Assembly (NCBI GenBank): GCA_026770705.1 | Contig: JANJGN010000014.1 | Span: 24,862,001 to 24,926,000, forward strand | Reading direction: 5' to 3' | Length of the DNA: 64,000 nt | Source: Isurus oxyrinchus | Lineage: Eukaryota | Shown: positions 1,250-61,318 of the stretch, one piece after another | Layout of the letters: every line of letters begins with the position of its first letter | Numbering within the stretch: position 1 is the stretch's first letter | Made by a program: the position numbers and the translations under genes | Notes under the pieces: model-generated | The model's database searches: none | Seen by the model: only the letters and a program-made list of their open reading frames with translations | What the model was told of the DNA's origin: nothing

Positions 1250-3075
1250 CCATAGAGTCAAAGAGTTATACAGCACAGTGACACGCCCTTCGGCCCATCG
1301 TGTCCGGGCCGGTCATCAAGCACCTATCTATTCTAATCCCATTTTCCAGCACTTCGCCCGTAGCCCTGTATTCTATGGCATTTCAAGTGCTCATCTAAAT
1401 ACTGTGAGGGTTCCTGCCTCTACCACCCCCTCAGGCAGTGTGTTCCAGATTCCAACCAGCCTCTGGGTGAAAAGATTTTTCCTCATATCCTCGCCTATCC
1501 AGTCTCTTCACAGCTGAAACACTCCAGCTCAGGCAATATCCTGGTGAATCTCCTCTGCACCCTCTCCTGTGCAATTAGATCCTTCCTGTAATGTGGCAAC
1601 CAGAACTGCGCACACAGTACTCCAACTGTGGTCTAACTAGCATTTTATACAGCTCCAACATAACCTCCCTGCTCTTATATTCTATGCCTCGGCTAATAAA
1701 GGCTAGTATCCCATATGCCTTCTTAACCACCTTATCTACCTGTGCTACTTCCTTCAGGGATCTATGAACACGTACACCAAGGTCCCTCTGATCCTCTGTA
1801 TTCCTCGGGTTCTATCAATCATTGTGAATTCCCTTGCTGTGTTAATCCTCAGAAAATGCATCACCTCACACTTCTCAGGATTAAATTCCATTTGCCACTG
1901 CTCTGCCCATCTTGCCAGCCCATCTATATCGTCCTGTAATCTAAGGCTTTCCTCCTCACTATTTACACCACCACCAATTTTCGTGTCATCTGCAAACTTA
2001 TTGATCATACCTCCTCCATTCATGTCTAAATCATTAATGTACATTACAAACAGCAAGGGTCCCAGCACCGATCCCTGCGGGACACACCACTCATCACAGG
2101 CTTCCAATTGCAAATCAACCTTCGACCACTACCATCTGCCTCCTGCCACTAAACCGATTTTGGATCCAATTTGCCAAATTGCCCTGGATCCCATGGGCTC
2201 TTACATTCTTGACCATTCTCCCATGTGAAACCTTGTCAAAAGCCTTACTGAAGTCCATGTAGATTACATCAACTGCACTACCCTCATCTACATAACTAGT
2301 CACCTCCTCGAAAAATTCAATCAAGTTTGTTCTATATAATCTCCCCCTGACAAAGCCATGCTGACTATCCCTGATCAATCCCTGCCTTTCCAAGTGGAAA
2401 TTAATCGTGTCCCTCAGAATTTTTTTTCCAATAGTTTCCCTACCACTGATGTTAGACTCAATAGCCATTAATTACTTGGTTTATCCCTACTATCCTTCTT
2501 GAATAATGGTACCACATTCGCTGTCCTCCAGTCCTCTGGCACCTCTCCTGTGGCCAGAGAGGATTTGAAAATTAGTGTCAGAGCCCCTGCAACCTCCTCC
2601 CTTGCCTCACAAAGCAGCCTGGGATACATCTCACCTGGGCCTGGGGATTTATCCACTTTTAAGCCTGCTAAAACCGTTAATACCTCCTCCCTTTCAATGT
2701 TAATTTGTTCAAGTATATCACAGTCCCGTCCCTGATTTCTGCACCTACATCATCCTTCTCCAGAGTGAAAAGTAATCATTTAAAACCTCACCTATGTCCT
2801 CCCGTTCCATGCACAGATTGTCACTTTGGTCCCTACTCTTTCCTGGTTATCCTCTTGCACTTAATATATTTATAAAACGCCTTGGGATTTTCCTTTATCT
2901 TGCTCGCCAGTGCTTTTTCATGCCCCCTCTTCACTTTCCTAATTACTTTTTTAAGTACCCCCCTACACTTTCTATACTACCCTAGGGTTTCCACTGTTTT
3001 CAGCCTCTGTATCTGCCATAAGCCTCCTTTTATTCCCCTTATTCAATTCTCTATATTCCTTGACATCCAGGTCTA
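1250..3075 (-). mobile_element. CR1 LINE, 5'-truncated and degenerate (RT + 3' end)
   Basis: Frameshifted RT pieces: KSPGPG, DFSKAFDKV, VPQGSVLGPLLF, KFADDTK. Confidence 0.9.
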
Positions 3076-3627
3076 GTTCATCTATATGCAAAATGCAGCA
3101 ATGGTTCCCACTTTGAACATGGGGAGCATCACTGTTTATAACCCTTCAGTCTAGAGCAAATTCCACTAGTCACAGTTCTGTTTTCTGTCCTTCAATCTGT
3201 TTCCTATTCATGCCGCCACATTCCCTTTAGCGCTGTAGCTCTTGAGTTTATCAAGAAGCTGATGCATTACCTTAACAAATGCTTCTTGAAAAAGTATTTA
3301 CACAACATGCACTACAATTCCTTTATCAATACACAGTTATTTCAAAGCACTTATTTTATCTCAATTTCTTTCTCTGAATCACATTCGGTTCTCTTTATCT
3401 AATTACCATCTTTCACAATAAACTGCAAGTGCAATACATTGAACTGTTTTTCCGTCGAAAGGACATGGTTTCAGCCAATGTCATCAAAATTCAGTTTCCA
3501 GAATCATAAAACCAGAGATAAATAAGGTTCTCATTCCTTTGTCATCCCCTCATCACCACAACATACTGTAATTCTACAAAACTCAGTCCATTCTAGAATG
3601 AAAATGTAAAATAGAAACACAATTAAC

Positions 3628-3894
3628 CTGCAGCACAGGGCAGGCTTGGGGGTCTCCACTCTCTCAATCGATGGTCAATGCAAATGGCAACAATTTCATC
3701 CCAAGGTATTTCTGAAACCAAAGGCCCCTCATCTATCGTGACTTCCAACGTCAAGAGACAGCTTTCTCTCCATTTGCCGTAAACTCTATTCAGGAGATGT
3801 TCAATCTTTGACAGCAGCAGTGGGCAAGTTTGCTGTGACACTGGCACCTGCGACACGTAATGGAAGATCATATCACAGACCTTAGCCCATGGAG
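3628..3894 (-). CDS. MCM3AP: MCM3AP exon (PWAKVCDMIFHYVSQ...EIPWDEIVAICIDHRLREWRPP)
   Basis: EIPWDxxxAxCIxHxLRxW motif; TAG acceptor, GTTAAT donor. Confidence 0.95.
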
Positions 3895-3984
3895 CTATGA
3901 GGAACAGAAAACAATTATTGCAGTCGTATGAATGATGAGATCACCAACACTGAGTAAAATTGTCTTTCAGAATTATGCTCATAC

Positions 3985-4375
3985 CATGCAAGGGAGGTAG
4001 ATCCATCACCGGTAACTGAAAAGACATCACAGCTTTCTTTAGCCAGGCCAGATGGTTATTAGAATTCCACTCTTTGTGTGCCAGTATTTCATGAGCAGCA
4101 GTTCCAGAAAACTCAGCAACTGGCCAGGAAAGATTGTAGAGTTGCTCAGAGGACACCACTTCTGCAAGGAAACGCAGCACATCATTGTAATACTCAATGA
4201 TGGAGCTTGGGTCCTGGGAAGGTAATGCAGCCAATAGCCTTTCGGATTTATCACTGTAAAACTGGTCACTGAACTCTCGACATAGTCCGTCCTCAATGAA
4301 CTGCATCAGAGTCTGACAGCAGACCTCCGGCGGTGATGGGCAACGTGAGGCCAGCCACCTTACAGCTTCAGAGAC
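3985..4375 (-). CDS. MCM3AP: MCM3AP exon (VSEAVRWLASRCP...CCQTLMQFIEDG...MDLPPLH)
   Basis: C-terminal MCM3AP domain: VVSSEQLxxLSWPVxEF, HLAWLKxAV. Confidence 0.96.
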
Positions 4376-4699
4376 CTAAAAGAAATGGAATCTCACTAAG
4401 ATGTCTGACAAAAATAACACACTGCAAAGCACTGGAAACATGGTCCACAGCATTATTTTCCATGTGGTCTGTTTGTTGCGAAAAAGGTGGGGAGGAGTAA
4501 GGAGCAGTCAAGAGAGTGTCGGGTCATGTGATGGGAGCAGTCATGTGGTGGGAATAGAATAAGAGGTGGCTGAAGACAGCTCCCTTGATTTCTGTGGTTT
4601 ACCCCTGTGGAAATTGCTGATGTTGGGTTGAAAGGTTCAGCTTTTTGACTGTCAAGTGTTTTGGGGTTTGCTCTGATGGTCAATGTACATTTGAACTGT

Positions 4700-7600
4700 C
4701 TAAACCAGAGGCAAACATAATCAGAATGAAACCAAGCCTGGTGCTTTATCGACTGCAGTGTCCAATACTACAACATGGTTCTAAATCTAATTCTGTCAGC
4801 ACACTTGGTGACTTAGAGCACTGTTCTCGCTGAATTTCCTGGACTCCATTCGGAGCTGTGTTCCTCTGTTTCTACTCAACAAGCTTCTGTTGCTCCTCTA
4901 CAAACCTCTGTCTCCTCCTTCAACCAAAGGCTATGGGACGTTGAACTGACTCAAGTGATAGAATTGTGGCTCTGGAAACGTGCTGCACCCAGCTGGAAGC
5001 CCAGAATACTAAATTGTTGACGAAGGTGGATGACCTGAGGAATCACAGCCAAAGACAAAACATAAGGATTCTCTCGGTTCCCGAGGGTGCGGAACAGGGA
5101 AACCCTACAACTTTTACTGAGGCATTTCTTTTCAAGATTTTTGGCAAGGAGAATTTCAATTCACTGCCGGTAGTGGATCGAGCCCATTGCTCTTTAGCAT
5201 CGCAGCCACAGCATGGCGAGTCCCCGAGGTCTTAAATACTAAGACTGCATCACTATAGAGTGAAGGAGCAAATTATGCCTCTCTCTCGAGAAAATGGTCA
5301 ACTATACTTTTGTGGAAGCAAGATATTCATCTACGCTGACCTCAGCGTGCATCTAGCCTTGCATCATGGAGAATATAGATTTGTGAAGCTGCAAGAAGCT
5401 TTAGCCTTTTTCAAGGACACAATTGAACCTTCTCTTAATAAGTCAGATCATGACTTCACCCAGGACAAAATGGTACTCGATGCTTAATTAGGTAACTATG
5501 CATGATGGTTCTGTTACACAGTAATTTTTGTTGGTTACACCAATCTCTTTGTACCTTATGTCCAAATTGCACTAATCGCTTGATATTTTATATAAACCCT
5601 ATGGGTGTTTATTTTTTACCTTTTACCACATGTATTATCATATTATTATTGTCTGTTTTCGGAATGCTTTCTCTCTAAAATGCACCCTTTGTTTATTCTC
5701 TTAAAGAGGGATAAGAATCCTCTGTATTGCAGTTCATACTGGCCTATTTCCCTTTTAAATGTGGATGTCAAGATACTAACTAAAGCCTTAGCCCACTGCC
5801 TTGAACCTGTCCTTCCATCTATTATCTCTTCTTACCAGACAGGTATTATACAGGACAAGCAATCCTTCCCTAATTTAAGGTGTCTTTTCAATATTATTTA
5901 TACACATTCAACAACTCCCTGAGGTTCTTTTAAGTACAGATGCAGAAAAGGCTTTTGATAGAGTGGAATGGGGCTACCTTTTCTTTACTCTTCAAAAGTT
6001 TCGATTTAGACCCATTTTTATAAAATGGATAAAACTATTGTATTCCTCACCAGTTACTTCAGTATGTACAAATAATATCCTCTCTAAATTCTTTGACTTT
6101 CATCGAGGTACCAGGCAGGGCTGTCCCCTTCCCCTCTACTTTTCGCTATTGCTATTGGGTCCCTTGCAATTTCACTGCGGACCTGTGGAGATATACAAGG
6201 TGTTATGTGGAATGGAGTCGAGCAGAAACTCTCCCTATACGCTGATGCCCTGCTTCTTTATATATCTGATCCAGCCTCATCTCTCCCACATATTTTCTCT
6301 ATTCTTGAGCAATTTGGTCACATTTCAGGTTTCAAAATTAATTTGCAAAAGAGTGAAATTTTTCCTATTATCTCTACTGCAAAAAGTTACCTTCTTTCTT
6401 CCCTCCCCTTCAAGGTCTCAGTAAACAGTTTTAAATATTTAGGAATTTTAGTTACTTGGAGACCTTTTTAAGCTCAACTCTGACCCTTTGGTGAAACATA
6501 CGAAGCAGGATTTAGCACGTTGGTCTAGCTTTCTTTAGTTGGTCATGTAAATTCTGTAAAGATGAATATTTTGCCAAAATTTCTATACGTATTTCAGTGC
6601 ATTCCACTGTTTATTCCCAAGTGTTTTTTGTTGCAATAGACCAATTTCTTCCTTTATTTGGAATAAGGTAACACCCAGAATTCGTCAAGTTTTTCTACAA
6701 AGTTCCAAGCATTTTGGCACTGCCAAATTTTCAGTTTTATTATTGGTCTGCTAATATATTTAATATTTCTTTTTGGCTTCATTTGGACTTGGTTGGTTTA
6801 GCCTGGGTGCAATTGGAGGCAGCATCCTATCAATCCACATCTCTGCTCTGTTGTGCTTCTCCATTGCTTTCTCAGCCAGTCACTTTTCTTCAAACCCTAT
6901 TGTGACAGTTTGGACCCAGTTCAGAACACACTTTGGGCTGCAATTTATCTCTTTATGCAGCCCTATTAATGCAAGCCATTTATTTCCACCTTCATTAGGA
7001 GGTTTTGTCTTTCAAGTCTGGCATGCGAGAGGTGTCAAAACCCTATTATACATGAATAATATTTTATCTTCTTTTGACTCTCTCTCTCTCTCTGAAATAT
7101 GATCTGCCTCACACACACTACTTTCGCTATTTACAAATCAGAGATTTTGCGCACAAAAAAAATCACCCAGTTTCCTTAATTGCCCCTAAATCACTGATAG
7201 ATAGTATGTTAGAATTAAATCCTTTCATTAGGGGGTTCATTTCCAAATTGTATTTTCTAATTTTTTTCACTATACTGCCCTTCGCTTTCTACCTTAAAAA
7301 CTCTTTGGCAGCAATATTTTGACTTAGACTTATCAGAAGATAACTGGAAGTCTATTCTCTCTCATGTATATTCCTCATCTGTATGTGCAAGACAGAGAAC
7401 CATAGAAAAGTTACAGCACAGAAAGAGGCCATTCAGCCCATCTTGTCCATGCCAGCTCGAGGACACCCATTCTAATCCCACCTTCCTGCACCCAGCCCAT
7501 AGCCCTGCAGCTTACAACACTTCAGGTGCAGATCCAGGTACTTTTTAAAAGAGTTAAAAGTTTCTGGCTCTACCACCAACTTGGGCAGCAAATTCCAGAC

Positions 7601-8560
7601 ACCCACTACACTATGCGTAGGAAAGTTCTTCTTCATGTCCCCCTTACACCTTCTGCCACTTATCTTGAATCTAAGTCCCCTGGTTCTAGAATCCTCCATC
7701 AAGGGAAACAATTTTATCCTGTCCACTCTATCTATTCCCCTCATAATTTTGTACACCTCAATCAAGTCACCTCTCAGCCTTCTTTGTTCTAAGGAAAATA
7801 ACCCCAACCTATCCAATCTCTCCTCGTAGCTGCACTTTTCTAACCCTGGCAACATTCTTGTAAACCTCCTCTGCACTCTCTCCAGAGCTATTACGTCCTT
7901 CCTGTAATGTGGTGACCAGAACTGCACACAATACTCCAGTTGTGGCCTCATCAGTGTTTTATACAATTCCAACATTATATCCTTACTTTTATATTCTAAC
8001 ATGGGTTGCTATAATTTAAAATCTTATATCGTATCTATCTATCTATCCAAGGTGAAACTGTCTAAGGTTTATCCAAATCTTGATTCAACCTGTAATAAAT
8101 GTCATACTGCCCCAGCCTCTAATTCATATGTACTGGTCATATCCTAAATTGGCTTTATTTTGGACAAAAAACTTTAGATCACTATCACATATTTTCAGTA
8201 GCAACAATGAACCTTCTTCTATTATAGCACCCTTTGGAGTGGAACCAAATGGCACCCCCTTAGAAATATTCAGACTGACGCACTTGCCTTTTCAACATTA
8301 TTTGCCAGATGCATTATTCTATTAAGTTGGAAACAGTCTGGCCCGCCTTCTTTTACTAATTGGATACGAGATCCTATGCAGAATCTTAAACTTGAGAAAA
8401 TGAAGTACACTATAAGATGTATTTTATGCAGCTTGGCAACCTTTCTTAGATTACTTTGAGGAACTACAGCTCTCTACTTTCATATAACTGACCCTAATTA
8501 GGTTGTATGCATTATATCAGGTGAAACTATATCTGACCTATGATTGTTGTTGATTTTTAT
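4700..8560 (+). mobile_element. L1-clade LINE, degenerate (ORF1 + ORF2 RT; endonuclease region deleted)
   Basis: ORF1-like DDLRNHSQRQNIRI...DRAH; ORF2 PISLLNVDVKILTK, DAEKAFDRVEW, RGTRQGCPL, SLYADALL. Confidence 0.85.
7395..7999 (-). mobile_element. CR1 3' fragment nested in the L1
   Basis: LEYCVQFWSPHYRKD...RRLRGDLIEVYKI; interrupts L1 ORF2 C-terminal sequence. Confidence 0.88.
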
Positions 8561-9925
8561 TTAATTTTTGGGGGATTGGGGAGGGATTTTTTTCCCCCTT
8601 TCCTTATTCTTCTTCTTCCTCCTACCTCTTTTCCTTTCTACAGACCCATATGCAGACTAAATCCTGTGACCATGTCTACTGAACTTAATCTCTCAGTTGT
8701 TAATCCAGTACCTAAACACTGCTCTACTATAGAAATGGAAGGACAGATTAAATACTGAATTTTGTTTTCTAGGATGTGTGTAATCACATTCCAACATCCA
8801 TATCAGGAAAAATTTGACTCATTTCAAAGAAGAGCAATTTGGATGTCATTGTATAAATTGGACTTGGGAGTTTACATTTTGAAAACTTTTGACAATACTG
8901 CAGCACTACTTTCTGAGTCAGACTCTTTGAACTAAAAGTTAGTGATAACTATTGCAAGTATTGCAAACTATTTACAGCCCAGAAAGAGGCCATGCAGGCC
9001 AACAGGACTACGCCAGTGTTTGCGTTCCACACTAACCTCCTCCCATCCCTATTCATATAACTCCATCAATATATCCTTGTGTTCTTTTCTCTCTCATGCA
9101 CTTCTCTAGCTTTCTCTTGCATCTATGCCCTTTACTTCAACCACTCTTTGTGGCAGCCAGTTCCATATTCTCCCCACTCTGTAGTAAATAAGTTTCTACT
9201 GAATTCCTTTTTGGACTTATTAGTGACCAGTTATTTTTATGGTCCTAGTTCTGGTCTTGCCTACAAGTGGAAATATGTTCTCTCGTGTCTACCTTATCAA
9301 ACGCTTTGATAATTTTCAAGGTCATCCCCCAATTTACTATTCTGGAGAGAAAGAGTTCAAGGCTGTTCAATCTTTCCTGATTGGTATAAGCTCTCTGTTC
9401 TGGTATCATTCCAGCAAATCCTTTTTGTACCTTCTTCGGGGCATCTTTTTATAATATTAATAGTATTCTAAAATTGTGGTGCAAATCAAGGTTCTCTACA
9501 AGTTTAACATAGCTTCTCTGCTTTTCCTTCAGGAATGAAACTTCATGCTTGTACTTTTTATTTTAAAAAGGCCTTATTCACATGTGTGCCTACTTTGTGA
9601 TTTGTGTATCTGTATCCCCAGATCTTTCTGATCCTCTAGCCCATTTAGACACTTATTTTCTCCACTTGTTGGAGGCAAGTTTGATACTCATAAGGGAATT
9701 GGATTGCTACCTGAAAGGAGAGAATGTATAAGGTTGCAGGGATAAGGCAGGGGAGTGGGAATAGGTGGAATGCTCTTTCAGAGAGCCAGGGCAGACTCGA
9801 TGGGCTGAATGGCCTCCTTCTGCACTGTAAAGATACTGTGATATTGTTATTGCCTTTTCTAATGAATTTTTTATTTGTGTACTTATGCCTTTTTACATGC
9901 ACAGATGCAATCTATCTGGACAATC

Positions 9926-12637: not shown

Positions 12638-13018
12638 CTATTTGCAGCTGGTATATTTAGTGACCGCCTTGGTGCCCTCGGAGACGGCATGTTTGGCCAG
12701 TTCCCCCGGCAACAGGAGGCGGATGGTGGTCTGGATCTCCCGGGAAGAGATGGTGTGCCGTTTGCTGTAGCGGATCAGGCGGGAAGCCTCGCAGGCGATG
12801 CGCTCGAAGATGTCGTTGACGAACAAGTTGATGACACTCATGGCTGAAGAGGAAATGCCGGTGTCGGGGTGGACCTGCTTCAGCACCTTATAGACGTAGA
12901 TGCTGTAGCTCTCCTTCCTGCTTTTCTTGCGCTTCTTCTCACCTTTGCCATGTTTCTTGGTGGCAGTTTTCTTTGGCCCCTTCTTGGGGGCCATGCCCTT
13001 CGCCGCCGCTTCAGGCAT
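12638..13018 (-). CDS. H2B: Histone H2B, divergent variant or retrocopy, nested in an MCM3AP intron (126 aa)
   Basis: MPEAA...[24 protein letters not shown]...[24 protein letters not shown]; intronless intact ORF; no canonical 3' stem-loop visible. Expression unknown. Confidence 0.9.
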
Positions 13019-13733
13019 TGCGAATGAAAGTCCTACCCATTTCAAATAGAGGTTAAAATGTTTCAGGTGCTGTTGTTTCAGCTCAGATTTGAGTTAAGTA
13101 GCATTGTCATAATGGCTCCCTCAGTCTGCACCTGGATGCAATGGGTCACTTGGGCAGGTTGGAGCATGTCCAGTTTTCCAATATTCTCTGCATCATGATC
13201 CAGTGTAACTGGACAGAGGCCCAAGAACACATACCCTTAAAGTATCTTTTTAAACCAGATTACCACATGGAGATTTCCACTGGATGGTGCATTTTACTGA
13301 CATTCTCCTCCACCTATTTAAAGTTACTTTCAAGACAATGTTGCCTATCAGTATCGATGTGGTGGCACTGATCTAAGAACATTTGATTCCTCTCACTACG
13401 CTAAGTTTCCAGTCCCAGCTAATGCATGGACTTCCCATGTGCCGGCTGATAGCAAGAATAAGAAGCCAAATGAAGGTGACAAACTATCACCCCACCGCCA
13501 CTCTATTGCAGGTGTGCCTAGCTCTCAGAAACAGAGGAACTCAGGAAGGAGTCACATCCTCAACAAACAAATATTCATTTTTGGCACTTCCGTGGCCTGC
13601 ACGAGTCCCTGGCTGTCAAGTTGAATTTGTGATCTACTCTAAGGTCTCTTGCATTATCTTAACAATCTTGGGTCAGCAACATTGCAGACATTTAACAAAA
13701 TACTTAATACAAAGATTCACAGCTTTTTTTAAC

Positions 13734-25300: not shown

Positions 25301-27110
25301 GAGGCCCTGTTTGATTCTTGCCCTTGATTTCTCTGCCTATCACTTTTCTCATTCCACTTTGTCTTTTGTTCTTGTCTTTGATTCCACCTTCCTCTGACTC
25401 CTTGCATAGGTTCCCATCCCCCTGCCATTTTCATTTAAACCCTCCCCAACCACTCCAGCAAATGTTCCCCCAAGGACATCGGTCCTGGTCCTGCCCAAGT
25501 GTAACCCGTCCAGTTTGTACTGGTCCCATCTCCCCCAGAACCAGTCCCAATGCCCCAGGAATCTGAAACCCTCCCCCTCACATCATCTCTTCAGCCACAT
25601 ATTCATCCGATATATCCTGCTATTTCTACTCCGTCTGGTACGTGGCACTGGCAGTAATCCTGAGATCCTTTGAGGTCCTACTTTTCAACTTACTACTAAC
25701 TCCCTATATTCTGCTTTTAGGACCTCATCCCTTTTTTCACTTATGTCGTTTGTACCAATGTGTACCACAACCACTGGCTGTTCCCCCTTCCCCTCCCCCT
25801 TCAGAATGTCCTCTAGCTGCTCTGAGACATCCTTGACCCTAGCACCAGGGAGGCAACATATCATCCTGGAGTCTCGTTTGCAACCACAGAAACGCCTATC
25901 TATTCCCCTTACAATTGAATCCCCTATAACTATTGCATTCCCACACTTACTCCCCCCCTGTGCAGCAGAGCCAACCGTGGTGCAACGAATTTGGCTGTTG
26001 CTGCTTTCTCCTGAGAGGCCATTCCCCCCAATGATATCCAAAGCAGTTTATCTGTTTTGCACTGCCTGCCTAGTCCTCTTGCTTTGCCTGGTGGTCACCC
26101 ATTCCCTTCCTGCCTGTGGACGCTTAGCCTGCGGTGTGATCACCTCAATATACCTGCTATCCACGATACTCTCTGCCTCGCGGATGCTCCAGTGTCCCCA
26201 GCCGCCACTCCAGGTCCAAAACCCAGGCTTCCAGGAGCTGCAGCTAGAGACACTTCCCACACACATGCTGGCCCCGGGCACTGGAAATGTGCCCGGCTTC
26301 CCACATAGAGCAGGAGGAGCACACCATGGCTTTGAGCTCTCCTGCCATGACTTATCCCTTTAAATTAAATTAAATCTTTTGGAAGATACTTAATATCAAT
26401 TACTCTTGGGCGCTTCTTCCCTGCTCCTCATTGTTACAGAATATAGACCCTACAAACGATGAACCACAAAATACGACCTTAAAAACTATAAGCAATAAAA
26501 GTAATAAATGCTTTCCTGGCCATACTCATGATACTCAAAGGATCACCTCATTCCCTCCTCACTCAACTTCCCTCAGTCACCCCTGCTCTCCCAGCTTCTC
26601 TTCAACCCCCGGCTCCTCTCCCGCTTCTCTTCAACTCCCGGCTCCTCTCGCGCTTCTCTTCAACTCCCGGCTCCTCTTCAACTTCCCGGCTCCTCTCCCG
26701 CTTCTCTTCAACTCCCGGCTCCTCTCCCGCTTCTCTTCAACTCCCGGCTCCTCTCCCGCTTCTCTTCAACTCCCGGCTCCTCTCCCGCTTCTCTTCAACT
26801 CCCGGCTCCTCTCCCGCTTCTCTTCAACTCCCGGCTCCTCTCCCGCTTCTCTTCAACTCCCGGCTCCTCTCCCGCTTCTCTTCAACTCCCGGCTCCTCTC
26901 CCGCTTCTCTTCAACTCCCGGCTCCTCTCCCGCTTCTCTTCAACTCCCGGCTCCTCTCCCGCTTCTCTTCAACTCCCGGCTCCTCTCCCGCTTCTCTTCA
27001 ACTCCCGGCTCCTCTCCCGCTTCTCTTCAACTCCCGGCTCCTCTCCCGCTTCTCTTCAACTCCCGGCTCCTCTCCCGCTTCTCTTCAACTCCCGGCTCCT
27101 CTCCCGCTCC
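22380..27110 (-). mobile_element. Near full-length CR1 LINE (5' tandem array, ORF1 Zn-finger + SGNH esterase, ORF2 APE + RT), frameshifted
   Basis: ORF1 MAGELKAMVCSSCSMWE (ATG ~26348), IVIGDSIVR; ORF2 LYLNARSIRNK, MGDFN, SGVPQGSVLGP, KFADDTK; (tttctatg) tail at ~22380. Confidence 0.92.
26586..27108. repeat. 29-bp minisatellite (CTCCCGGCTCCTCTCCCGCTTCTCTTCAA), about 18 units
   Basis: Directly visible near-perfect tandem array. Confidence 0.95.
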
Positions 27111-27769
27111 TTTTCAATTCCTGACTCCTCTAGGTGCTGCTGACTACCTGTCCCAGAGTTCTCCTCTCGCTCTCTCCTATCTTGCTTTCCTCCATTTTCC
27201 TTTCACATCCTAGTCTTAATTAATATAATGTCTCAGTCTGCAATGCTGGAAGAGTTGGGAGAGGGTGAACATTCTTCAATGCCACCTGCCAGCCAGCAAA
27301 TAGCATACTTGAAATAGATGAAGGAACAGTCTCTCTCCAATGTGACTTTCTCCTTGCTGCTTGGTGTCTGTCTACAACAGCACATTCAAAGTTCGGTTGG
27401 GGGGGGGGGGGGGTGGAAACCCTACTGATCAAAGTTTCTTTGTATTGTGCATGGTCCATTCCTTAAAGGTAACATTACCTTTAAATTCTCTGCATGGCCA
27501 TGCTATTTTAAAAGGAGAAAATTGTGCATGGCCTGCACAGTGATTTACAGGTTGCTGCACAGCCATGCAGCTGTGAAGGAATACTGCTGCTGACCAAATG
27601 TTTTATGCCACAAAGCTGGCCAAACATTTAAAACATCTAATTTAATGACATTTTTATAATTTAAAAAAATTACTCCCACACTGGAACTCTCAAGCACTAA
27701 TTAAAAGTTCCCATTAATTTTGGACAACCCGAGTATCTTATTACCTAAAACCCAATACTGAACATTGGA

Positions 27770-31414: not shown

Positions 31415-31598
31415 TGAAATGAAAACAGAAAACTTGGGAAACACTCAAAAGATTTGGCAGCAAAAGACAGTTAATGTTTCAGATCTGTGACCTTTCATCA
31501 GAATTATGATCAAAAGTTCACAGACCTGAAAACATAAATAGTTTTCTCTCTCCACAGATGCTGCCTACTAAGTATTTCCATCATTTTGTTTTTATTGG
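31415..31598. mobile_element. Short palindromic element made of two inverted PLE 3' tails (hammerhead-containing)
   Basis: Imperfect inverted arms centred on AATT at 31502-31505, each homologous to the PLE terminal module. Confidence 0.75.
31469..31505 (-). ncRNA. Minimal hammerhead ribozyme motif, partly decayed
   Basis: AATT-CTGATGA-A-AGGTC-ACA-GATCT-GAAAC-ATT-AACT. Confidence 0.65.
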
Positions 31599-38796: not shown

Positions 38797-40170
38797 CAAA
38801 AGCAAAAAACTGCGGATGCTGGAAATCCAAAACAAAAACAAAAATACCTGGAAAAACTCAGCAGGTCTGGCAGCATCTGCGGAGAAGAACATAGTTAACG
38901 TTTCGAGTCTGAATGACTCTTCAACAGAACTAAGTAAAAATAGAAGAGAGGTGAAACATAAACTGGATTAACGGGGGTGTGACAAGGAGAGCTGGATAGA
39001 GGGCCAGTGAAAAATGTCACAGACAAAAGGACAAAAAGGTGTTGAGGGTGGTGATATTATCTAAGGAATGTGCTAATTAAGGGTAGAAAGCAGGACAAGC
39101 AAGGTACAGATAGCTCTAGTGGGGGTGGGGTGGGGTGAAGGAATCAAAAAAGGCTAAAAAGGTAGAGATAAAACAACGGATGGAAATACATTTAAAAATA
39201 ATGGAAATAGGTGGGATAAGAAAAATATATATAAATTATTGGGAAAAAAAAGGGGGGGGGATCGGAAAGGGGACGGGGATGAAGGAGAGAGTTCATGATC
39301 TAAAATTGTTGAACTCAATATTCAGTCTGGAAGGCTGTAAAGTGACTAGTCGGAAGATGAGGTGCTATTCCTCCAGTTTGCGTTGAGCTTCATTGGAACA
39401 ATGCAGCAGGCCAAGGACAGACATGTGGGCATGAGAGCAGGGTGGAATGTTGAAATGGCAAGCGACAGGGAGGTCTGGGTCATGCTTGAGGACAGACCGA
39501 AGGTGTTCTGCAAAGTGGTCACCCAGTCTGTGTTTGGTCTCTCCAATATAGAGGAAACCTCATTGGGAGCAGCGAATGCAGTAGACTAAATTGAGGGAAG
39601 TGCAAGTGAAATGCTGCTTCACTTGAAAGAAGTGTTCGGGCCCTTGGACGGTGAGGAGAGGGCAAGTAAAGGGGCAGGTGTTGCACCTTCTGCGGTTGCA
39701 TGGGAAGGTGCCATGGGAGGGGGTTGAGGTGTAGAGGGTGATGGAGGAGTGAACCAGGGTATCCCGGAGGAAATGATCCCTGCAGAATGCCGCCAGGGGG
39801 AAGGGAAGATGTGTTTGGTAGTGGCATCATGCTGGAGTTGGCAGAAATGGCAGAGGATGAGCCTTTGAATGCTGAGGCTGGTGGGGTGATAAGTGAGGAC
39901 AAGGAGGACCCTGTCATGGTTCTGGGAGGCAGAGGATTGTGTGAGGGCAGATGCGTGGGAGATGGGCCAGACATGGTTGAGGGCCCCGTCAACCACGGTG
40001 GGTGGAAAACCTCGGTTAAGGAAGAAGGAAGACATATGAGAGGAACTGTTTTTGAAAGTGGCATCATCAGAACAGATGTGACGGAGGCGAAGGAACTGAA
40101 AGAATGGGATGGAGTCCTTACAGGAAGCGGGGTGTGAGAAGCTGTACTCGAGGTAGCTGTGGGAGACGGT
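38797..40170 (-). mobile_element. Penelope-like element, 5'-truncated (RT C-terminus, GIY-YIG, 3' tail)
   Basis: MSSFFLNRGFPPTVVD...VLTYHPTS; same family as 53844-58003. Confidence 0.9.
38893..38931 (-). ncRNA. Minimal hammerhead ribozyme motif
   Basis: AGTT-CTGTTGA-A-GAGTC-ATTCA-GACTC-GAAAC-GTT-AACT. Confidence 0.75.
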
Positions 40171-40478
40171 CGGTTAGCTAGAGCATTGTTGGATGTCAAG
40201 GACGGAAGGGCTGGATAGAGCTCAAGTGATGGGCCTTAGGGAAATCAAGGTTCGTTTTGACGGTTCAGCAGTTATCCAATCTCTGTATGACTTACCAAAC
40301 ATAAAGGAGATCACACTTTCAGCAGCAACACAGAATAATCAATTAGGACAAGTGTGGGAAGCAACAAAGTGACAGGTGTTTCACGTGTTGTAGTTACAAA
40401 ATTTGTCTCAAGAAGAGATGCATGTAAGGAAGATGGTTATAAGCAATTTTAAACACCCAAGCTCTTTTTGACACTTAC

Positions 40479-50197: not shown

Positions 50198-51282
50198 ACC
50201 AAAGATACTGCAGATGCTGGAACTCTGAAATAAAAGCTGAAAATGCTGGAAAAATTCAGCAGGACCGATGGCATCTGTGGAGAGAGAAACAGAGTTAATG
50301 TTTTGAGTCTGTATGACCCTTCTTCAGAGCTACACCGAAGGTGTTGCGCAAAGTGGTCACCCAGTCATTTGGTCTCCCCAAAGTAGAGGAGACTGCACTG
50401 GGAGCAGCGAATGCAGTAAACTAAATTGAAGGAGGTACAAGTGAAGCGCTGCTTCACCTGAAAGGAGTGTTTGGGCTCTTACACGGTGAGGAAGGAGGAG
50501 GTAGAGGAGCAGGTGTTGCACCTTCTGCGATTCCATGGGAAGGTGTCATGGGAAGGGGATGAGGTATTGGGAGTGATGGAGGAATAGACCAGGATGTCCT
50601 GGAGGTAATGGTCCTTACGGAATGCTACAGGGCAGTGAGAGGAAGATGTGTTTGGTGGTGGCATCATTCTGGAAATGGCAAAGGATGATCCTTTGAACAT
50701 GGAGACAGGTGGGGTCAAAAGTGAGAACAAGGGGGGACCCTTTCATGGTTCTGGGAGAGAGGGGAAGGTGTGAGGACAGAGGCGCGGGAGATGGGTTGGA
50801 CACGGTTGAGGGCCCTGTCAACCACAATGGGTGGGAAACCTCGGTTAAAGAAGGAGGAAGACATGTCAGAAGCGCCGTTTTGGAAAATGGCATCATTGGA
50901 ACAGATGCAACGGAGGCGAAGGAACTGAGAGAATGAGATGGAGCCCTTGAGGAAAGCAAGAAGTGAGGAGCTGTAGTCAAGGTAGTTGTGGGAGTCAGTG
51001 GGCTTGTAATGAATATTAGTGGACAGTCTATCACCAGAAATGGAGACTGAGGTGTCAAGGAAGGGAAGGGACGTGTCGGAGATGGACCATGTGAAGGTGA
51101 GAGAGGGATGGAAATTGGAAGCAAAATTGATAAATTTTTCCAGATCCAGATGAGAGCATGAAGCAGCACTGAAACAGTCGTCGATGTACCAAAAAAGCGT
51201 TGTGGGAGGGGGGCTTGAGTAGGACTGGAACAAGGGATGGTCCACATACCCCATAATGAGACCGGCATAACTGGGACCCAAG
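50198..51282 (-). mobile_element. Older Penelope-like element fragment with internal deletion
   Basis: GPSYAGLIMGYV, WYIDDCF, LPFLD, YKPTDSHNYL; 3' tail at 50198-50331. Confidence 0.88.
50293..50331 (-). ncRNA. Decayed minimal hammerhead motif
   Basis: AGCT-CTGAAGA-A-GGGTC-ATACA-GACTC-AAAAC-ATT-AACT (GAAA changed to AAAA). Confidence 0.55.
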
Positions 51283-52665: not shown

Positions 52666-53940
52666 AAAACCTAATTTCTCCAAATGACAATGAACCAGAA
52701 GGGTAAAGAAGCAGAAAATGATGAAGAGGGTGTCCAGCAAGGAGGACTGGCTTCACACAGTGACTCCAACAGACTGGTTTCATCTGGCTGAGAGATCCTT
52801 CTTCCATGAAAAGGAATCTAACTAGCCTCGCTCACCTCCCAGAAGTGGATTGAGCAACACATGGCTAAGTTACAGTGTACAGGAGAAGGGAAGAACGAAA
52901 AGGAAATATTTTAGATTGTGTTCTTCTTTATAATTTACTTCTCAAATCAATAAGATGCTTAAACATTGATTATCACTGACTTATTAAGCATACCGAAAAT
53001 GAATAGTACTTAAAACATACGCCTAAAGAATAATACTTACAAATGAACCTTACTGGTTTAGTTAAGGGACTTTCGGTTCACAGCTCCAAGCTTAGTATTA
53101 CAGATTGTTGAGACCTTATTGGTCCTAGGTATATGTACAAACTCCCACTTTTTAAAGTGGGAGTTCTACATGACAATCCACGATTAACTGCATAATGTAG
53201 AAACATAAATTTGACTTTAATTTCGTACCAGTCCACCCCTTGCTTCCATGAAAATTCCAATTAAAAAGCATGATGTATACCCAGATGTTTCTTCTGCAGT
53301 ACCAATTGCTTTTCTGTACTTGCTACCAATTAATTAAAGTTCTCTGAAATATGAATCACTATGCACTTGCATGTCTTTAAATTGGAATTACAAAGTGACA
53401 AAAACAGCCTTAAGGCAGTTTAGTGGTCACTGCAGCTAAATTGACCTGCTTAACAGGCAAAAGCTAATGGTTACTATTACCACAACAAAAGAGATTTCAA
53501 TAACAGTACAATATTAGCAGACCTCAGAAACTGGATTTGTACACAATTTTCAATAACAAGACATTGCTAGAATAAAGATAAGAGCAATGGTTGCAAGCTC
53601 ACTTGATCACTTGCTTCCTGCAGTGTGCAGGGCAGTTGTCCCTATGATTAAATATCCGATTTTCTTAATAAAACTGTGATAATCCTTTCCTTACAAAAGG
53701 AAAGGAAACAGGAACTGTGAAACAATCAAGGCTTATGTTGCTCTCAATGTCAGTGAAGGAGAAGGGTGCTATGAAAGTCACATTCATTCCAGATAGTTCA
53801 CCCCAGAACACAAAATTAAACCAAATAATTAGAATTCAAGTATAAAAACCAAGAAAACTGCGGATGCTGGAAATCCAAAACAAAAACAGAATTACCTGGA
53901 AAAACTCAGCAGGTCTGGCAGCATCGGCGGAGAAGAAAAG

Positions 53941-53979
53941 AGTTGACGTTTCGAGTCCTCATGACCCTTCAACAGAACT
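53941..53979 (-). ncRNA. Minimal hammerhead ribozyme motif (type I), best-preserved copy
   Basis: AGTT-CTGTTGA-A-GGGTC-ATGAG-GACTC-GAAAC-GTC-AACT; predicted cut between 53945 and 53944. Confidence 0.82.
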
Positions 53980-54372
53980 TGATTTCGAGTCCAAGAAAGA
54001 GTTGAAATATAAGCTGGTTTAAGGTGGGTGTGTGGGGGGGCGGAGAGAGAGTGAGAGACAGAGGTGCTTGTGTAGACAAACAAGCAGTGATAGAAGCAGA
54101 TCATCAAAAGATGTCAGCGACAATGGTACAAAAGAACACATAGGTGTTAAAGTTAAAGTTGGTGATATTATCTAAACGAATGTGCTAATTAAGAATGGAT
54201 GGTAGGGCACTCAAGGTACAGCTCTAGTGGGGGTGGGGGGAACATAAAAGATTTTAAAATATTTAAAAATAATGGAAATAGGTGGGAAAAGAAAAATCTA
54301 TAAAATTTATAGGGAAAAAAAAGGGAAAAAAAAGGGGGAAACAGAAAGGGGGTGGGGATGGGGGAGGGAGCT

Positions 54373-55508
54373 CACGACCTAAAGTTATTGAATTCAATAT
54401 TCAGACCGGAAGGCTGTAAGGTGCCTAGTCGGAAGATGAGGTGTTATTCCTCCAGTTTGCGTTGGGCTTCACTGGAACAATGCAGTAAGCCAAGGACAGA
54501 CATGTGGGCAAGAGAGCAGGGTGGAGTGTTAAAATGGCAAGCGACAGGGAGGTTTGGGTCATTCTTGCGGACAGACCGCAGGTGTTCTGCAAAGCGGTCG
54601 CCCAGTTTACGTTTGGTCTCTCCAATGTAGAGGAGACCACATTGGGAGCAACGAATGCAGTAGACTAAGTTGGGGGAAATGCAAGTGAAATGCTGCTTCA
54701 CTTGAAAGGAGTGTTTGAGCCCTTGGACGGTGAGGAGAGAGGAAGTGAAGGGGCAGGTGTTACATCTTTTGCATGGGCATGGGGTGGTGCCATAGGAGGG
54801 GGTTGAGGAGTAGGGGGTGATGGAGGAGTGGACCAGGGTGTCCCGGAGGGAGCGATCCCTACGGAATGCCGATAAGGGGGGTGAAGGGAAGATGTGTTTG
54901 GTGGTGGCATCATGCTGGAGTTGGCGGAAATGGCGGAGGATGATCCTTTGAATGCGGAGGCTGGTGGGGTGATAAGTGAGGACAAGGGGGACCCTATCAT
55001 GTTTCTGGGAGGGAGGAGAAGGCGTGAGGGCGGATGCGCGGGAGATGGGCCGGACACGGTTGAGGGCCCTGTCAACGACCGTGGGTGGAAAACCTCGGTT
55101 AAGGAAGAAGGAGGACATGTCAGAGGAACCGTTTTTGAAGGTAGCATCATCGGAACAGATGCGACGAAGGCGAAGGAACTGGGAGAATGGGATGGAGTCC
55201 TTACAGGAAGCGGGGTGTGAGGAGCTGTAGTCGAGGTAGCTGTGAGGGTCGGTGGGTTTGTAATGGATATTGGTGGACAGTCTATCACCAGAGATTGAGA
55301 CAGAGTGGTCAAGGAAGGGAAGGGAAGTGTCAGAGATGGACCACGTGAAAATGATGGAGGGGTGGAGATTGGAAGCAAAATTAATAAATTTTTCCAAGTC
55401 CCGACGAGAGCATGAAGCGGCACCGAAGTAATCATCGATGTACCGGAGAAAAAGTTGTGGAAGGGGGCCGGGGTAGGACTGCAACAAGGAATGTTCCACA
55501 TACCCCAA
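54373..55508 (-). pseudogene. PLE RT C-terminus + GIY-YIG ORF (inverted arm), premature stop at 54444
   Basis: RYIDD...PCPCKRCNTC...VYCIRCSQCGLLYIGETKRKLGDRFAEH...RKLEE*. Confidence 0.9.
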
Positions 55509-57531
55509 AAATACCCCAGTTCAACGGATCCTTTTACCCATCTCCAATATTCTCCCTCCACCTGGACCCCTCCCTCTGGATTCTTACCTTCTCTTGATCT
55601 TTTCATTGAGAACTGTCGGCGCGACATTAGTCGTCTCAATTTCTCTGCTCCTCTCACCCATTCTAACCTGTCTCTCTCTGAACTTACTGCACTCCATTCT
55701 CTCAGGTCCAACCCTGACATTGTCATCAAACCCGCTGACAAGGGTGGTGCTGTTGTTGTCTGGCGCACTGACCTCTACCTCGCGGAGGCTGAGCGTCAAC
55801 TCGCAGACACTTCCTCCTACCTCTCCCTGGACCATGACCCCACCACTGAACATCAAGCCATTGTTTCCAGGACTGTCACTGACCTCATCTCCTCTGGGGA
55901 TCTCCCTCCCACAGCTTCCAACCTGATAGTCGCCCAACCTCGGACGGCCCGCTTCTATCTCCTACCCAAAATCCACAAACAGAACTGCCCCGGTAGACCG
56001 ATCGTCTCAGCTTGCTCCTGCCCCACAGAACTCATTTCTCGTTATCTTGACTCCCTTCTCTCTCCCCTTGTCCAGTCCCTTCCCACCTACATCCGTGATT
56101 CCTCTGACACCTTACGTCACATCAACAATTTCCAGTTCCCTGGCTCCAACCGCTTCCTCTTCACCATGGACGTCCAATCCCTCTACACCTCCATCCCCCA
56201 CCAGGATGGTCTGAGGGCCCTTAGCTTCTTCCTCGAACAGAGGCCCGAACAATCCCCATCCACCACTACTCTCCTCCGTCTGGCTGAACTTGTTCTCACG
56301 TTGAACAATTTCTCCTTCAACTCCTCTCACTTTCTCCAAATAAAAGGTGTGGCTATGGGTACCCGCATGGGCCCCAGCTATGCCTGTCTCTTTATGGGGT
56401 ATGTGGAACATTCCTTGTTGCAGTCCTACCCCGGCCCCCTTCCACAACTTTTTCTCCGGTACATCGATGATTACTTCGGTGCCGCTTCATGCTCTCGTCG
56501 GGACTTGGAAAAATTTATTAATTTTGCTTCCAATCTCCACCCCTCCATCATTTTCACGTGGTCCATCTCTGACACTTCCCTTCCCTTCCTTGACCTCTCT
56601 GTCTCAATCTCTGGTGATAGACTGTCCACCAATATCCATTACAAACCCACCGACTCCCACAGCTACCTCGACTACAGCTCCTCACACCCCGCTTCCTGTA
56701 AGGACTCCATCCCATTCTCCCAGTTCCTTCGCCTTCGTCGCATCTGTTCCGATGATGCTACCTTCAAAAACGGTTCCTCTGACATGTCCTCCTTCTTCCT
56801 TAACCGAGGTTTTCCACCCACGGTCGTTGACAGGGCCCTCAACCGTGTCCGGCCCATCTCCCGCGCATCCGCCCTCACGCCTTCTCCTCCCTCCCAGAAA
56901 CATGATAGGGTCCCCCTTGTCCTCACTTATCACCCCACCAGCCTCCGCATTCAAAGGATCATCCTCCGCCATTTCCGCCAACTCCAGCATGATGCCACCA
57001 CCAAACACATCTTCCCTTCACCCCCCCTTATCGGCATTCCGTAGGGATCGCTCCCTCCGGGACACCCTGGTCCACTCCTCCATCACCCCCTACTCCTCAA
57101 CCCCCTCCTATGGCACCACCCCATGCCCACGCAAAAGATGTAACACCTGCCCCTTCACTTCCTCTCTCCTCACCGTCCAAGGGCCCAAACACTCCTTTCA
57201 AGTGAAGCAGCATTTCACTTGCATTTCCCCCAACTTAGTCTACTGCATTCGTTGCTCCCAATGTGGTCTCCTCTAGATTGGAGAGACCAAACGTAAACTG
57301 GGCGACCGCTTTGCAGAACACCTGCGGTCTGTCCGCAAGAATGACCCAAACCTCCCTGTCACTTGCCATTTTAACACTCCACCCTGCTCTCTTGCCCACA
57401 TGTCTGTCCTTGGCTTACTGCATTGTTCCAGTGAAGCCCAACGCAAACTGGAGGAACACCACCTCATCTTCCGACTAGGCACCTTACAGCCTTCCGGTCT
57501 GAATATTGAATTCAATAACTTTAGGTCGTGA
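55509..57531 (+). pseudogene. PLE reverse transcriptase + GIY-YIG ORF, 5'-truncated, frameshift ~57025, stop 57274-57276
   Basis: IKPADKGGAVVV, YLLPKIHK, GRPIVS, MDVQSLYTSIP, GVAMGTRMGP, RYIDD, LPFLD; VYCIRC..CGLL*IGET, HF, GLN. Confidence 0.93.
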
Positions 57532-57930
57532 GCTCCCTCCCCCATCCCCACCCCCTTTCTGTTTCCCCCTTTTTTTTTTTCCCCTTTTTTTTCCCTATAA
57601 ATTTTATAGATTTTTCTTTTCCCACCTATTTCCATTATTTTTAAATATTTTAAAATCTTTTATGCTCCCCCCACCCCCACTAGAGCTGTACCTTGAGTGC
57701 CCTACCATCCATTCTTAATTAGCACATTCGTTTAGATAATATCACCAACTTTAACTTTAACACCTATGTGTTCTTTTGTACCATTGTCGCTGACATCTTT
57801 TGATGATCTGCTTCTATCACTGCTTGTTTGTCTACACAAGCACCTCTGTCTCTCACTCTCTCTCCGCCCCCCCCCCACACACACACCTTAAACCAGCTTA
57901 TATTTCAACTCTTTCTTGGACTCGAAATCA

Positions 57931-57969
57931 AGTTCTGTCGAAGGGTCATGAGGACTCGAAACGTCAACT
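57931..57969 (+). ncRNA. Minimal hammerhead ribozyme motif
   Basis: AGTT-CTGTCGA-A-GGGTC-ATGAG-GACTC-GAAAC-GTC-AACT. Confidence 0.8.
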
Positions 57970-58159
57970 CTTTTCTTCTCCGCCGATGCTGCCAGACCTG
58001 CTGAGAATTCAAGTATGGTTGGACAAAATCCATAGCCAGTTGGGATCAGATTTGTAAAAATGGAAACCAAAGCTGCCCAAATGAATACAGCTTGCATTAT
58101 AAATGAACTTCAGAATGATCACCCTCATGGATTAAGTAAATGGAGAATTTGAAACCAAC

Positions 58160-59545: not shown

Positions 59546-59864
59546 CTGCAGAGCAAATCTAATGAACATCTGATTCTGTTTAAAACCCCAGTTCTTATCT
59601 TATTTCTCTCCTCACTTAGCCCCTCACATTCAATTTGTTCATAACAGAAAGGGATGGATCATGCAGCCTCACAGTGCATCACTTATGAATGAACCCAACT
59701 ACACAGTGTCACAGGATGCACAAACATTCAGGACTGACAAACTCACCCAGTGTCAGCCAGGATCCACACCTGTAACAGATTGACAAACTCACCCAATAAC
59801 AGAACAAAAACAGAATTACCTGGAAAAACTCAGCAGGCCTGGCAGCATCGGCGGAGAAGAAAAG

Positions 59865-59903
59865 AGTTGACGTTTCGAGTCCTCATGACCCTTCAACAGA
59901 ACT
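59865..59903 (-). ncRNA. Minimal hammerhead ribozyme motif
   Basis: Identical to 53941-53979. Confidence 0.82.
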
Positions 59904-60869
59904 GGGTGAATCCAAGGAGAGGGGTGAAATATAAGCTGGTTTAAGGAGTGGGGCGGGGGTGGGAGGGGGGGGGGGGGGGGGGAGGTGTGGAAAGAAGTGG
60001 AGGGGGGTGGTGTGGTTGTAGGGACAAGCAAGCAGTGATAGGAGCAGATCATCAAAAGATGTCACAGACAAAAGAACACAGAGGTGTTAAAGTTGATGAT
60101 ATTATCTAAACGAATGTGCTAATTAAGAATGGATGGTATGGCACTCAAGGTACAGCTCTAGTGGGGGTGGGGGTCATAAAAGATTTAAAAATAATGGAAA
60201 TAGGTGGGAAGAGAAAAATCTATATAATTTATTGGAAAAAAAGCAAAAGGAAGGGGGAAGAAACAGAAAGGGGGTGGGGATGAGGGAAGGAGTTCAAGAT
60301 CTAAAGTTGTTGAATTCAATATTCAGTCCGGAAGGCTGTAAAGTGCCTAGTCGGAAGATGAGGTGCTGTTCCTCCAGTTTGCGCTGGGCTTCACTCGAAC
60401 AATGCAGCAAGCCAACGACAGACATGTGGGCAAGAGAGCAGGGTGGAGTGTTAAAATGGCAAGCGACAGGGAGGTTTGGGTCATTCTTGCGGACAGACCG
60501 CAGGTGTTCTGCAAAGCTGTCGCCCAGTTTACGTTTGGTCTCTTTTGTTTTTTCCAATAATTTATATAGATTTTTCTTTTCCCACCTATTTCCATTATTT
60601 TTAAATCTTTTATGCCCCCCACCCCCACTAGAGCTATACCTTGAGTGCCATACCATCCATTCTTAATTAGCATATTCGTTTAGATAATATCACCAACTTC
60701 AACACCTCTGTGTTCTTTTGTCTGTGACATCTTTTGATTATCTGCTCCTATCACTGCTTGCTTGTCCCTACAACCACACCACCCCCCTCCACTTCTCTCC
60801 CCCCACCCAACCGCTCCCTCTCCCAACCTTAAACCAGCTTATATTTCACCCCTCTCCTTGGATTCACCC

Positions 60870-60908
60870 AGTTCTGTTGAAGGGTCATGAGGACTCAAAA
60901 CGTCAACT
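60870..60908 (+). ncRNA. Minimal hammerhead motif with G12A change (likely inactive)
   Basis: AGTT-CTGTTGA-A-GGGTC-ATGAG-GACTC-AAAAC-GTC-AACT. Confidence 0.65.
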
Positions 60909-61281
60909 CTTTTCTTCTCCGCCGATGCTGCCAGACCTGCTGAGTTTTTCCAGGTAATTCTGTTTTTGTTTTGATTTCCAGCATCCGCAGTTTTTTGTTT
61001 TTATCACCCAATAAGAGAGTCCATCCCATTGAAGCTAATCTTAAATAGAGTCAATGTATTTTGTGAATTGAAATTAAAACTTCATGAGCACAGTAAGCAC
61101 AGGGTATGATAACAATAAGGCAAAGGAAAACTTGTTTATTGTTTCTTGTACCCAGCAATACTGAAAAATAATTCTCACTGGCCTTTATCACAGAGGTTAA
61201 TAGAAAAACAAAATACTACAGATGTTGGAAATCTGAACTAAATACAGAAAACATAGGCAGCATCTGTGGAGAGAGAAATTG

Positions 61282-61318
61282 AGTTAACATTTCAGTTCTG
61301 GGACCTTTCATCAGAACT
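61282..61318 (-). ncRNA. Minimal hammerhead motif in a solo PLE tail (~61203-61320)
   Basis: AGTT-CTGATGA-A-AGGTC-CCA-GAACT-GAAAT-GTT-AACT. Confidence 0.62.

Follow-up and report, generated by a model that had tools for sequence, protein, structure and literature searches.

A fixed A6-to-U core variant in the minimal hammerhead motif of a shark Penelope-like retrotransposon

The window analysed here, a 64,000-nucleotide stretch of the Isurus oxyrinchus genome, lies within the gene for MCM3AP (GANP). Its exons run on the minus strand between positions 3629 and 59559, correspond to residues 535-1749 of the white shark protein, and include one that is 98% identical to white shark GANP; the gene extends past both ends of the window. 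The region also contains a histone H2B-like open frame in an MCM3AP intron (12638-13093, minus strand), its identity read from the translation, and a tandem repeat array (26374-27213, plus strand) with open frames in three registers. Eight copies of a hammerhead-like motif are scattered through the window, all of them in MCM3AP introns. The one of primary concern, at 57931-57969 on the plus strand, lies in the pseudo-LTR of a Penelope-like retrotransposon (PLE). It is a minimal hammerhead of type I and carries U in place of A at position 6 of the canonical core CUGANGA.

The element that hosts this motif is represented by a 5'-truncated open reading frame (55416-57531, plus strand) encoding a reverse transcriptase (RT) with a YIDD box, a CxxxCxxC linker and a GIY-YIG endonuclease, the frame being broken near 57040. 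It is followed by the 3' UTR or pseudo-LTR (57532-58005, plus strand), an interval that takes in both the motif, with which the 3' UTR ends, and the start of a conserved downstream block. An AT-rich, TATA-like block of putative promoter function lies about 30 bases upstream of the motif. Within the window the element occurs as truncated and inverted arms, paired at 53842-58005 and 59800-61004. A more complete arrangement is found at another locus, L181, where pseudo-LTRs are repeated in tandem with a period of 3,340 bases around an intact 918-codon ORF that has U6 motifs on both sides. This ORF encodes an RT, a CPRKRCNTC linker (of the form CX2-5CxxC, between RT and endonuclease) and a GIY-YIG domain; in Pfam, RVT_1 scores above the cut-off and GIY-YIG, at E 9e-4, just short of it. 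The first in-frame ATG lies about 175 bases after the start of the motif. A single ORF combining RT with a C-terminal GIY-YIG domain, the linker, and tandem pseudo-LTRs are features of EN+ PLEs of the Neptune/Nematis type, and the shark element has all of them; it also shares the inverted 5'-truncated arms and the tail with the elements of these clades, as far as the accessible text on them goes (Craig et al. 2021, PMC8557442). Relatives of the element make up 4.7% of 1.33 Mb of unselected shark DNA.

Two further observations concern L181. Its tandem units (2200-8990) have private variants in common that are absent from the family majority, which suggests that a single template was copied repeatedly or that the units were duplicated later. 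Between motif and ORF, the leader contains a CAG-GTAATT donor-like site and polypyrimidine-CAG acceptor-like sites (5640-5680), which may mark a small 5' UTR intron or splice signals of the kind present in other Penelope elements.

The motif at 57931-57969 belongs to the youngest subfamily of the element. Its stem I, AGUU/AACU (57931-34/57966-69), encloses the core CUGUCGA, with C3 at 57935, the substituted U6 at 57938 and C7 at 57939, followed by an extra A at 57942; stem II, GGGUC/GACUC (57943-47/57953-57), is capped by a five-base loop. GAAAC follows, with G12 at 57958, and a palindromic ACGU (57961-64) leads into the GUC that ends in C17 at 57965, so that the layout predicts a cut between 57965 and 57966. 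Except at position 6, this is the consensus layout of the minimal hammerheads (min-HHRs) of PLE pseudo-LTRs as far as it could be consulted (Cervera and de la Pena 2014, PMC4209133): type I, with a short stem I (3-5 pairs), an extra base after A9, G10.1-C11.1 closing stem II, no helix III, a palindrome at 15.2-16.2 (here ACGU), and a pseudo-LTR site among thousands of dispersed copies, which at L181 means a motif every 3,340 bases around the intact ORF. GAAA (12-15.1), U16.1 and H17 are all present, GAAAC being followed by GUC in the young subfamilies and by GUU in the older ones. On these features, the U6 motif lacks the A6 of CUGANGA but appears to descend from a canonical min-HHR and to keep every other characteristic of one. 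The published min-HHRs have low activity, include a reported U3-A8 core variant and, in the text available, come from no shark; A6 is present in 56 of the 56 representative families of Fig. S3 in that study, families obtained largely by descriptor searches built on the catalytic boxes (PMC4209133). Rfam hammerhead models return no match in the window at E up to 1, A6 copies included, nor in L181 5400-9100 at E up to 10. Elsewhere in the element unit the sense strand has no second canonical hammerhead, and the antisense strand has four hammerhead spacings, all without stem II.

The initial annotation had listed eight copies of the motif, five with U6 and three with A6, and all eight are present where it placed them and with the letters it gave. 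The 57931 motif has an inverted partner arm 98.7% identical to its own (53842-55511, minus strand), carrying CUGUUGA at 53941-53979. A second inverted pair (59800-61004), assigned by sequence comparison and tree to a middle-aged U6 subfamily, has CUGUUGA motifs at 59865-59903 (minus) and 60870-60908 (plus), the latter having also lost G12. The fifth U6 copy (38798-40175, minus strand; motif at 38893-38931, again CUGUUGA, with a GUU site) belongs to an older U6U7 subfamily and shares only 79% identity with the young element across 1.4 kb. The A6 copies are old and all on the minus strand: 31469-31505 and 61282-61318 read CUGAUGA and have a shorter stem II region, while 50256-50331, the copy listed at 50293, reads CUGAAGA and has lost G12.

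Several smaller features accompany these copies. A further decayed tail copy (31490-31592, plus strand) lies inverted relative to the one at 31469. The abundant old A6A7 subfamily has AGCU as its stem I 5' strand (50328-50331, minus strand, and several random loci), and given the C-A mismatch that this places next to the core, impaired versions of the motif may predate U6. The youngest subfamily has gained GGACTCGAA as a second copy just upstream of the motif (57918-57927, plus strand); it duplicates the stem II 3' strand and the start of GAAA, arose stepwise along the subfamily ladder, and could compete for pairing. At five loci (L216-L220), old A6-type copies are interrupted at one common spot inside GAAACAUU, four of the five being joined to an end of the GGAAAATT..CC type; about 20 copies broken at GAAACAUU occur among the 100 matches listed in a search for A6-family copy ends. 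The insert is presumably a DNA transposon that targets the GAAACAUU site.

Since the five U6 copies in the window represent one inherited event, the window alone is weak evidence for the status of U6, and it is the genome counts that settle the matter. Within a 35-base background whose other 33 bases had to match exactly, the genome contains 66,327 U6 copies against 98 with A6 and 1,322 with C6 or G6; reversed-pattern controls gave none, and the background for a single site in this frame amounts to 185-319 copies. A structure descriptor with position 6 left free, run over 133 unselected 10-kb stretches (1.33 Mb), recovered 36 intact motifs, 34 of them U6 and 2 A6, with none in the reversed sequence used as control, which extrapolates to about 130,000 motifs genome-wide. 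U6 is thus not sporadic, as it would have had to be to tell against the initial annotation. Among 86 copies parsed in 1.2 Mb, 48 belong to U6 lineages, including nearly all the young ones, and 37 to A6 lineages. The youngest master is U6C7: by hand count, 88 of the first 100 of the 66,327 U6 copies read CUGUCGA. Some UU copies are CpG-decayed forms of U6C7 and others are members of older U6U7 subfamilies, so the earlier description of the young core as CUGUUGA/CUGUCGA, though right about the letters present, holds for the youngest master only in its second form. Contigs under two other organism labels, aligned to U6 references, read mostly U, with A at about 1% and 6% of depth, a reading that is biased by the references and shows presence only. 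Unlike the published min-HHRs, with their A6 (PMC4209133), the shark family therefore has U6 as its master state, in over 66,000 exact copies.

The minor variants of position 6 in the young background do not form lineages. About 1,120 copies are CUGCUGA (C6U7), a figure derived from 85 such copies among the first 100 of the 1,322 with C6 or G6 (for example L201-L215). They make up about 9% of the U7 pool, compared with roughly 0.5% for T-to-C change at U16.1, an excess near 18-fold by hand estimate that is seen only with U7 and not in the C7 context. A second, C6 master lineage was considered and rejected: nine C6 copies need eight changes on the tree (shuffled 8.3), and C6 is found in both arms at only two of eight unselected loci with a partner arm, a count from which three further both-C6 loci, chosen because they were paired, are left out. 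CUGCUGA is therefore recurrent, and a repeat-templated mutation hotspot (making CTGCTG) or a repeated advantage from unzipping the rod-like fold described below would both fit. A surviving A6 sub-lineage fared no better, seven A6 copies needing six changes; these are scattered back-mutations. Nor are they depleted, the 98 A6 copies comparing with about 35, 44 and 108 single transversions at three control sites, figures scaled by hand from the first 100 matches listed per site.

On a ladder-shaped tree of 51 unselected copies, built with positions 6 and 7 masked, the distribution of A6 and U6 needs one change (shuffled mean 9.4), which points to a single origin, the A6/U6 branch itself being weakly supported (67/0, 66% of bootstrap trees). 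Together with the 66,327 to 98 ratio and the intact ORF flanked by U6 motifs, this supports the earlier proposal that U6 was carried by active masters and is not random decay. Subfamily majorities were sorted on flanks and on stem II or loop letters, a scheme that placed 154 of 236 copies; loci chosen for their position 6 are among those in classes S4-S7, and the S7 majority is built from four copies and is not reliable at positions 6-7. The order runs from A6A7 to A6U7 and then to U6U7, in which stem II is unaltered and the site is GUU, followed by a stem A-U pair becoming G-U, a new loop together with C17, two flank steps, and finally U6C7. Divergence of copies from their majority falls from 8.0% at the last A6 step and 5.5% at the first U6 step to 2.1% in the youngest. 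In the older background U6 already predominates (73 against 19 A6 in a hand count of the first 100 of 3,986 copies), so the change predates the young subfamily. The title of the initial annotation, which had U6 fixed in the young subfamily, is right that U6 is the master state there; it needs correcting in that U6 is not confined to it, and the 38893 copy sits on an older U6 step.

What happened to the motif after U6 can be read from the later subfamily majorities. None of the other 13 core positions changed, and the 18 stem positions show one change, which keeps its pair, against four of the seven free positions (N7, N17 and two of five loop sites); the contrast between 1 of 31 structural and 4 of 7 free positions is significant (Fisher p = 0.002). 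Over the same span 19 of 159 four-fold sites and 49 of 306 positions in the 3' UTR changed, a neutral divergence of 12-16%, and the flanking spacers were altered at many sites. Measured against this neutral rate alone the conservation of the core is modest, with hand-calculated probabilities of about 0.1-0.2 for no change in 13 core positions and about 0.03-0.1 for at most one in 31. Other blocks outside the motif are equally conserved, so a promoter acting at the DNA level could account for some of the conservation, though not obviously for the fit to the hammerhead map. Two CpG sites (G12, and C15.2-G16.2) are often decayed in single copies and are retained by every subfamily majority. Among individual young copies, variants at core A13 (185), core U16.1 (319) and a loop site (293) are about equally common. 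The pattern after U6 would fit the suggestion, made in the initial annotation, of a tolerated natural core variant.

Folding was computed from secondary-structure energies of natural 39-base motifs, without tertiary contacts or protein. In U6U7 motifs, pairs G5-C15.2, U6-A15.1 and U7-A14 are predicted, with probability 0.85-0.97, to zip the core into a rod, which C7 undoes. Separating an active dimer from free monomers is a computed gap of 4.7 kcal/mol in the A6 ancestor, 6.5-6.7 in U6U7, 4.5 in U6C7 and 3.9 in C6U7; a structure for the dimer, joined through the ACGU palindrome, can be drawn up and given an energy, but other folds lie lower. The rod is not the thing conserved: the positions that it leaves unpaired (G8, A9, the extra A, G12 and A13) stayed fixed, and the most numerous subfamily has lost the rod's U7-A14 pair. 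In natural A6 back-mutants with C17 the gap rises to 9.5-12.5 kcal/mol, reaching 12.5 in the young background, the A6C7 form being predicted to make a five-pair UGACG/CGUCA hairpin. Reversion to A6 in the young motif is thus predicted to be blocked by this inactive hairpin, and a simple U6-to-A swap, as proposed earlier for comparing cleavage, would be confounded by misfolding. When the 60 bases that naturally follow the young motif are included, its hammerhead stems are expected to form seldom (stem II probability under 0.15). Two other accounts of the change were set aside. Selection to remove an upstream AUG (A6-U7-G8) is at odds with the young leader, which has two other upstream AUGs, one of them acquired after U6, and a shifted register using UUGAAGA as core in U6U7 copies loses stem I pairing and is absent from the youngest master.

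The ends of truncated copies bear on where transcription begins and whether cleavage leaves a trace. Among 56 young copies, 25 start at -3 to +14 of the motif and one at +33 to +38. By hand tally, 15 of the first 100 of 1,257 copies ending in the interval +30 to +41 begin at +35, six of these 15 being stem I microhomology inversions, and the same 100 include 13 starts at +32, 12 at +30 and 12 at +40. No clear peak of copy ends is therefore seen at the cut site in the U6 family, and none in an A6 family in which about half of the matches listed are length variants, so that copy ends do not tell the two families apart. The starts at -3 to +14 suggest that transcription initiation overlaps the motif. 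Short copies at random loci span the motif from -3..+14 to +97..+105 and resemble a strong-stop product, as if reverse transcription from an internal start had run off the 5' end of the transcript. The lack of such a peak agrees with the PLE of Anolis (PAc, a Poseidon element), in which unprocessed RNA is the main substrate and, in the data seen, RNA-seq shows no ends at the site (Frangieh et al. 2024, PMC11167929).

Like the shark element, PAc has its hammerhead upstream of the start of reverse transcription; cutting there depends on the PAc protein, and insertion in vitro proceeds even with catalytic mutants (PMC11167929). PAc differs in belonging to the Poseidon clade, in having an ORF that begins inside stem II, and in that the accessible text mentions no change at position 6. 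Among EN+ elements, canonical hammerheads occur in the Neptune/Nematis-type clades and are absent from Naiads (PMC8557442); the shark lineage would stand between the two, its fold kept and its core altered. A natural pyrimidine at position 6 is known from the A6C hammerhead of phage Bcep176, whose activity is low but detectable (kobs under 0.1 per min), though it is a single phage locus and has C, not U (Perreault et al. 2011, PMC3088659). The same study rejected core mutants as matches, noting that they were mainly parts of repeats; unlike these, the shark U6 is a founder state and not decay (PMC3088659). All single CUGA mutants had low activity in a deep scan of another hammerhead, and the part of the supplement consulted gave no value for the single mutant A6U (PMC9901934); nor do the accessible portions of PMC6765202, PMC11014351, PMC6155905 and bioRxiv 2026.07.22.740005 report A6U. 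In the literature listings searched, neither a natural A6U hammerhead nor the present shark family is reported, and the only paper there with both 'hammerhead' and 'A6U' deals with twister ribozymes. Lunse et al. 2017 (RNA Biol 14:1499), reportedly on PLE hammerhead variants, and Ruffner et al. 1990 may bear on the novelty of A6U and on its rate.

A6U here is a genuine core variant, fixed in a ribozyme of a known kind, and the explanation we favour, at about even chances, is that the master lineage swapped A6 for U once and that the motif is a tolerated, slower, still working ribozyme under selection. Transposition went on through at least five later subfamily steps. Transcription would start near the 5' end of the motif, reverse transcription would start about 100 bases downstream and pass through it, and uncut RNA would be the template, so that slow cutting would cost the element little. 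Cutting would come late, either between two tandem motifs paired as a dimer or, as reported for the anole element, assisted by the protein that the element encodes. U6 would remove an A6 contact and is predicted at first to have let the core zip into the inactive rod; the later changes of U17 to C (the GUC site) and then of U7 to C are predicted to have brought the folding gap back to the ancestral level. More tentatively, the A6U hammerhead may still cleave with the element's protein, C17 and C7 may have re-tuned its core, and a return to A6 may now be harmful because A6 would lock the five-pair inactive hairpin.

A possible, if somewhat doubtful, alternative is that the U6 motif is catalytically dead and has been kept as a protein-bound structure at the 5' end of the transcript or as an internal promoter in the DNA. 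It would account for the short copies starting at -3 to +14, which are expected if the transcription start overlaps the motif, for the equally conserved blocks on its flanks, and for the missing ends at the cut site; it gains from the normal insertion of anole catalytic mutants in vitro (PMC11167929), from the high copy numbers reached by Naiads without canonical hammerheads (PMC8557442) and from the low activity of CUGA mutants (PMC9901934), as far as these sources were available. The changes after U6 nevertheless fall where the hammerhead consensus allows them, the one stem change keeping its pair, and a DNA promoter would not be expected to follow the hammerhead map. N17, moreover, went from U to C and so to GUC, commonly the preferred cut triplet of hammerheads. 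That the whole motif is vestigial, with A6U hitchhiking and the rest looking conserved for lack of time, strikes us as improbable. Neutral divergence since U6 is indeed only 12-16%, an unchanged 13-letter core is not improbable alone, and young copies carry core and loop variants at similar frequency; against this, the free sites (4 of 7) and the adjacent spacers turned over while 31 structural positions saw one compatible change, and the two often-decaying CpG sites survive in every subfamily majority.

We give equally little credence to selection for U6 as a means of damping cleavage, whether by releasing a brake on the insertion template or by avoiding harm to the host from sense copies in introns. 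That the anole element mainly uses unprocessed RNA as substrate (PMC11167929, in the portion seen), that U6 lineages include nearly all young copies, and that U6U7 is predicted to zip the core shut all agree with it. Yet A6 subfamilies, at 37 of 86 copies, reached great abundance too, back-mutants to A6 show no depletion, and the later C7 is predicted to have undone the zipping. The intronic version, raised in the initial annotation as an attenuated ribozyme less harmful inside host introns, is unsupported: relative to MCM3AP, all three A6 copies of the window lie in sense orientation, a small and decayed sample, as do three of the five U6 copies. Harm from A6 in introns is further disfavoured by one published test, as far as it could be consulted, in which a single minimal hammerhead gave no cleavage (PMC4209133).

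The role of hammerheads in PLEs has been debated, with RNA processing set against possible parasites (PMC8557442), and in the one biochemical test they were dispensable in vitro (PMC11167929, as far as that account was available). The shark family bears on this debate in that one PLE lineage altered a core letter and left dated natural sequences from before and after the change. If the more tentative reading, of a re-tuned hammerhead that still cleaves, is true, standard CUGANGA searches would overlook motifs numbering on the order of 100,000 in a single shark genome, and the subfamily ladder with its dates would form an evolutionary series for testing the hammerhead's part in Penelope transposition. 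Should U6 RNAs cut, position 6 would lose its standing as invariant, and most motifs in this genome would be escaping descriptor searches, the CUGANGA rule keeping 2 of 36. Should they not cut, an element with a C-terminal endonuclease would have been transposing with great success and without cleavage while the shape of the motif is kept, which would point to a non-catalytic role. Either outcome would be informative on why PLEs carry hammerheads.
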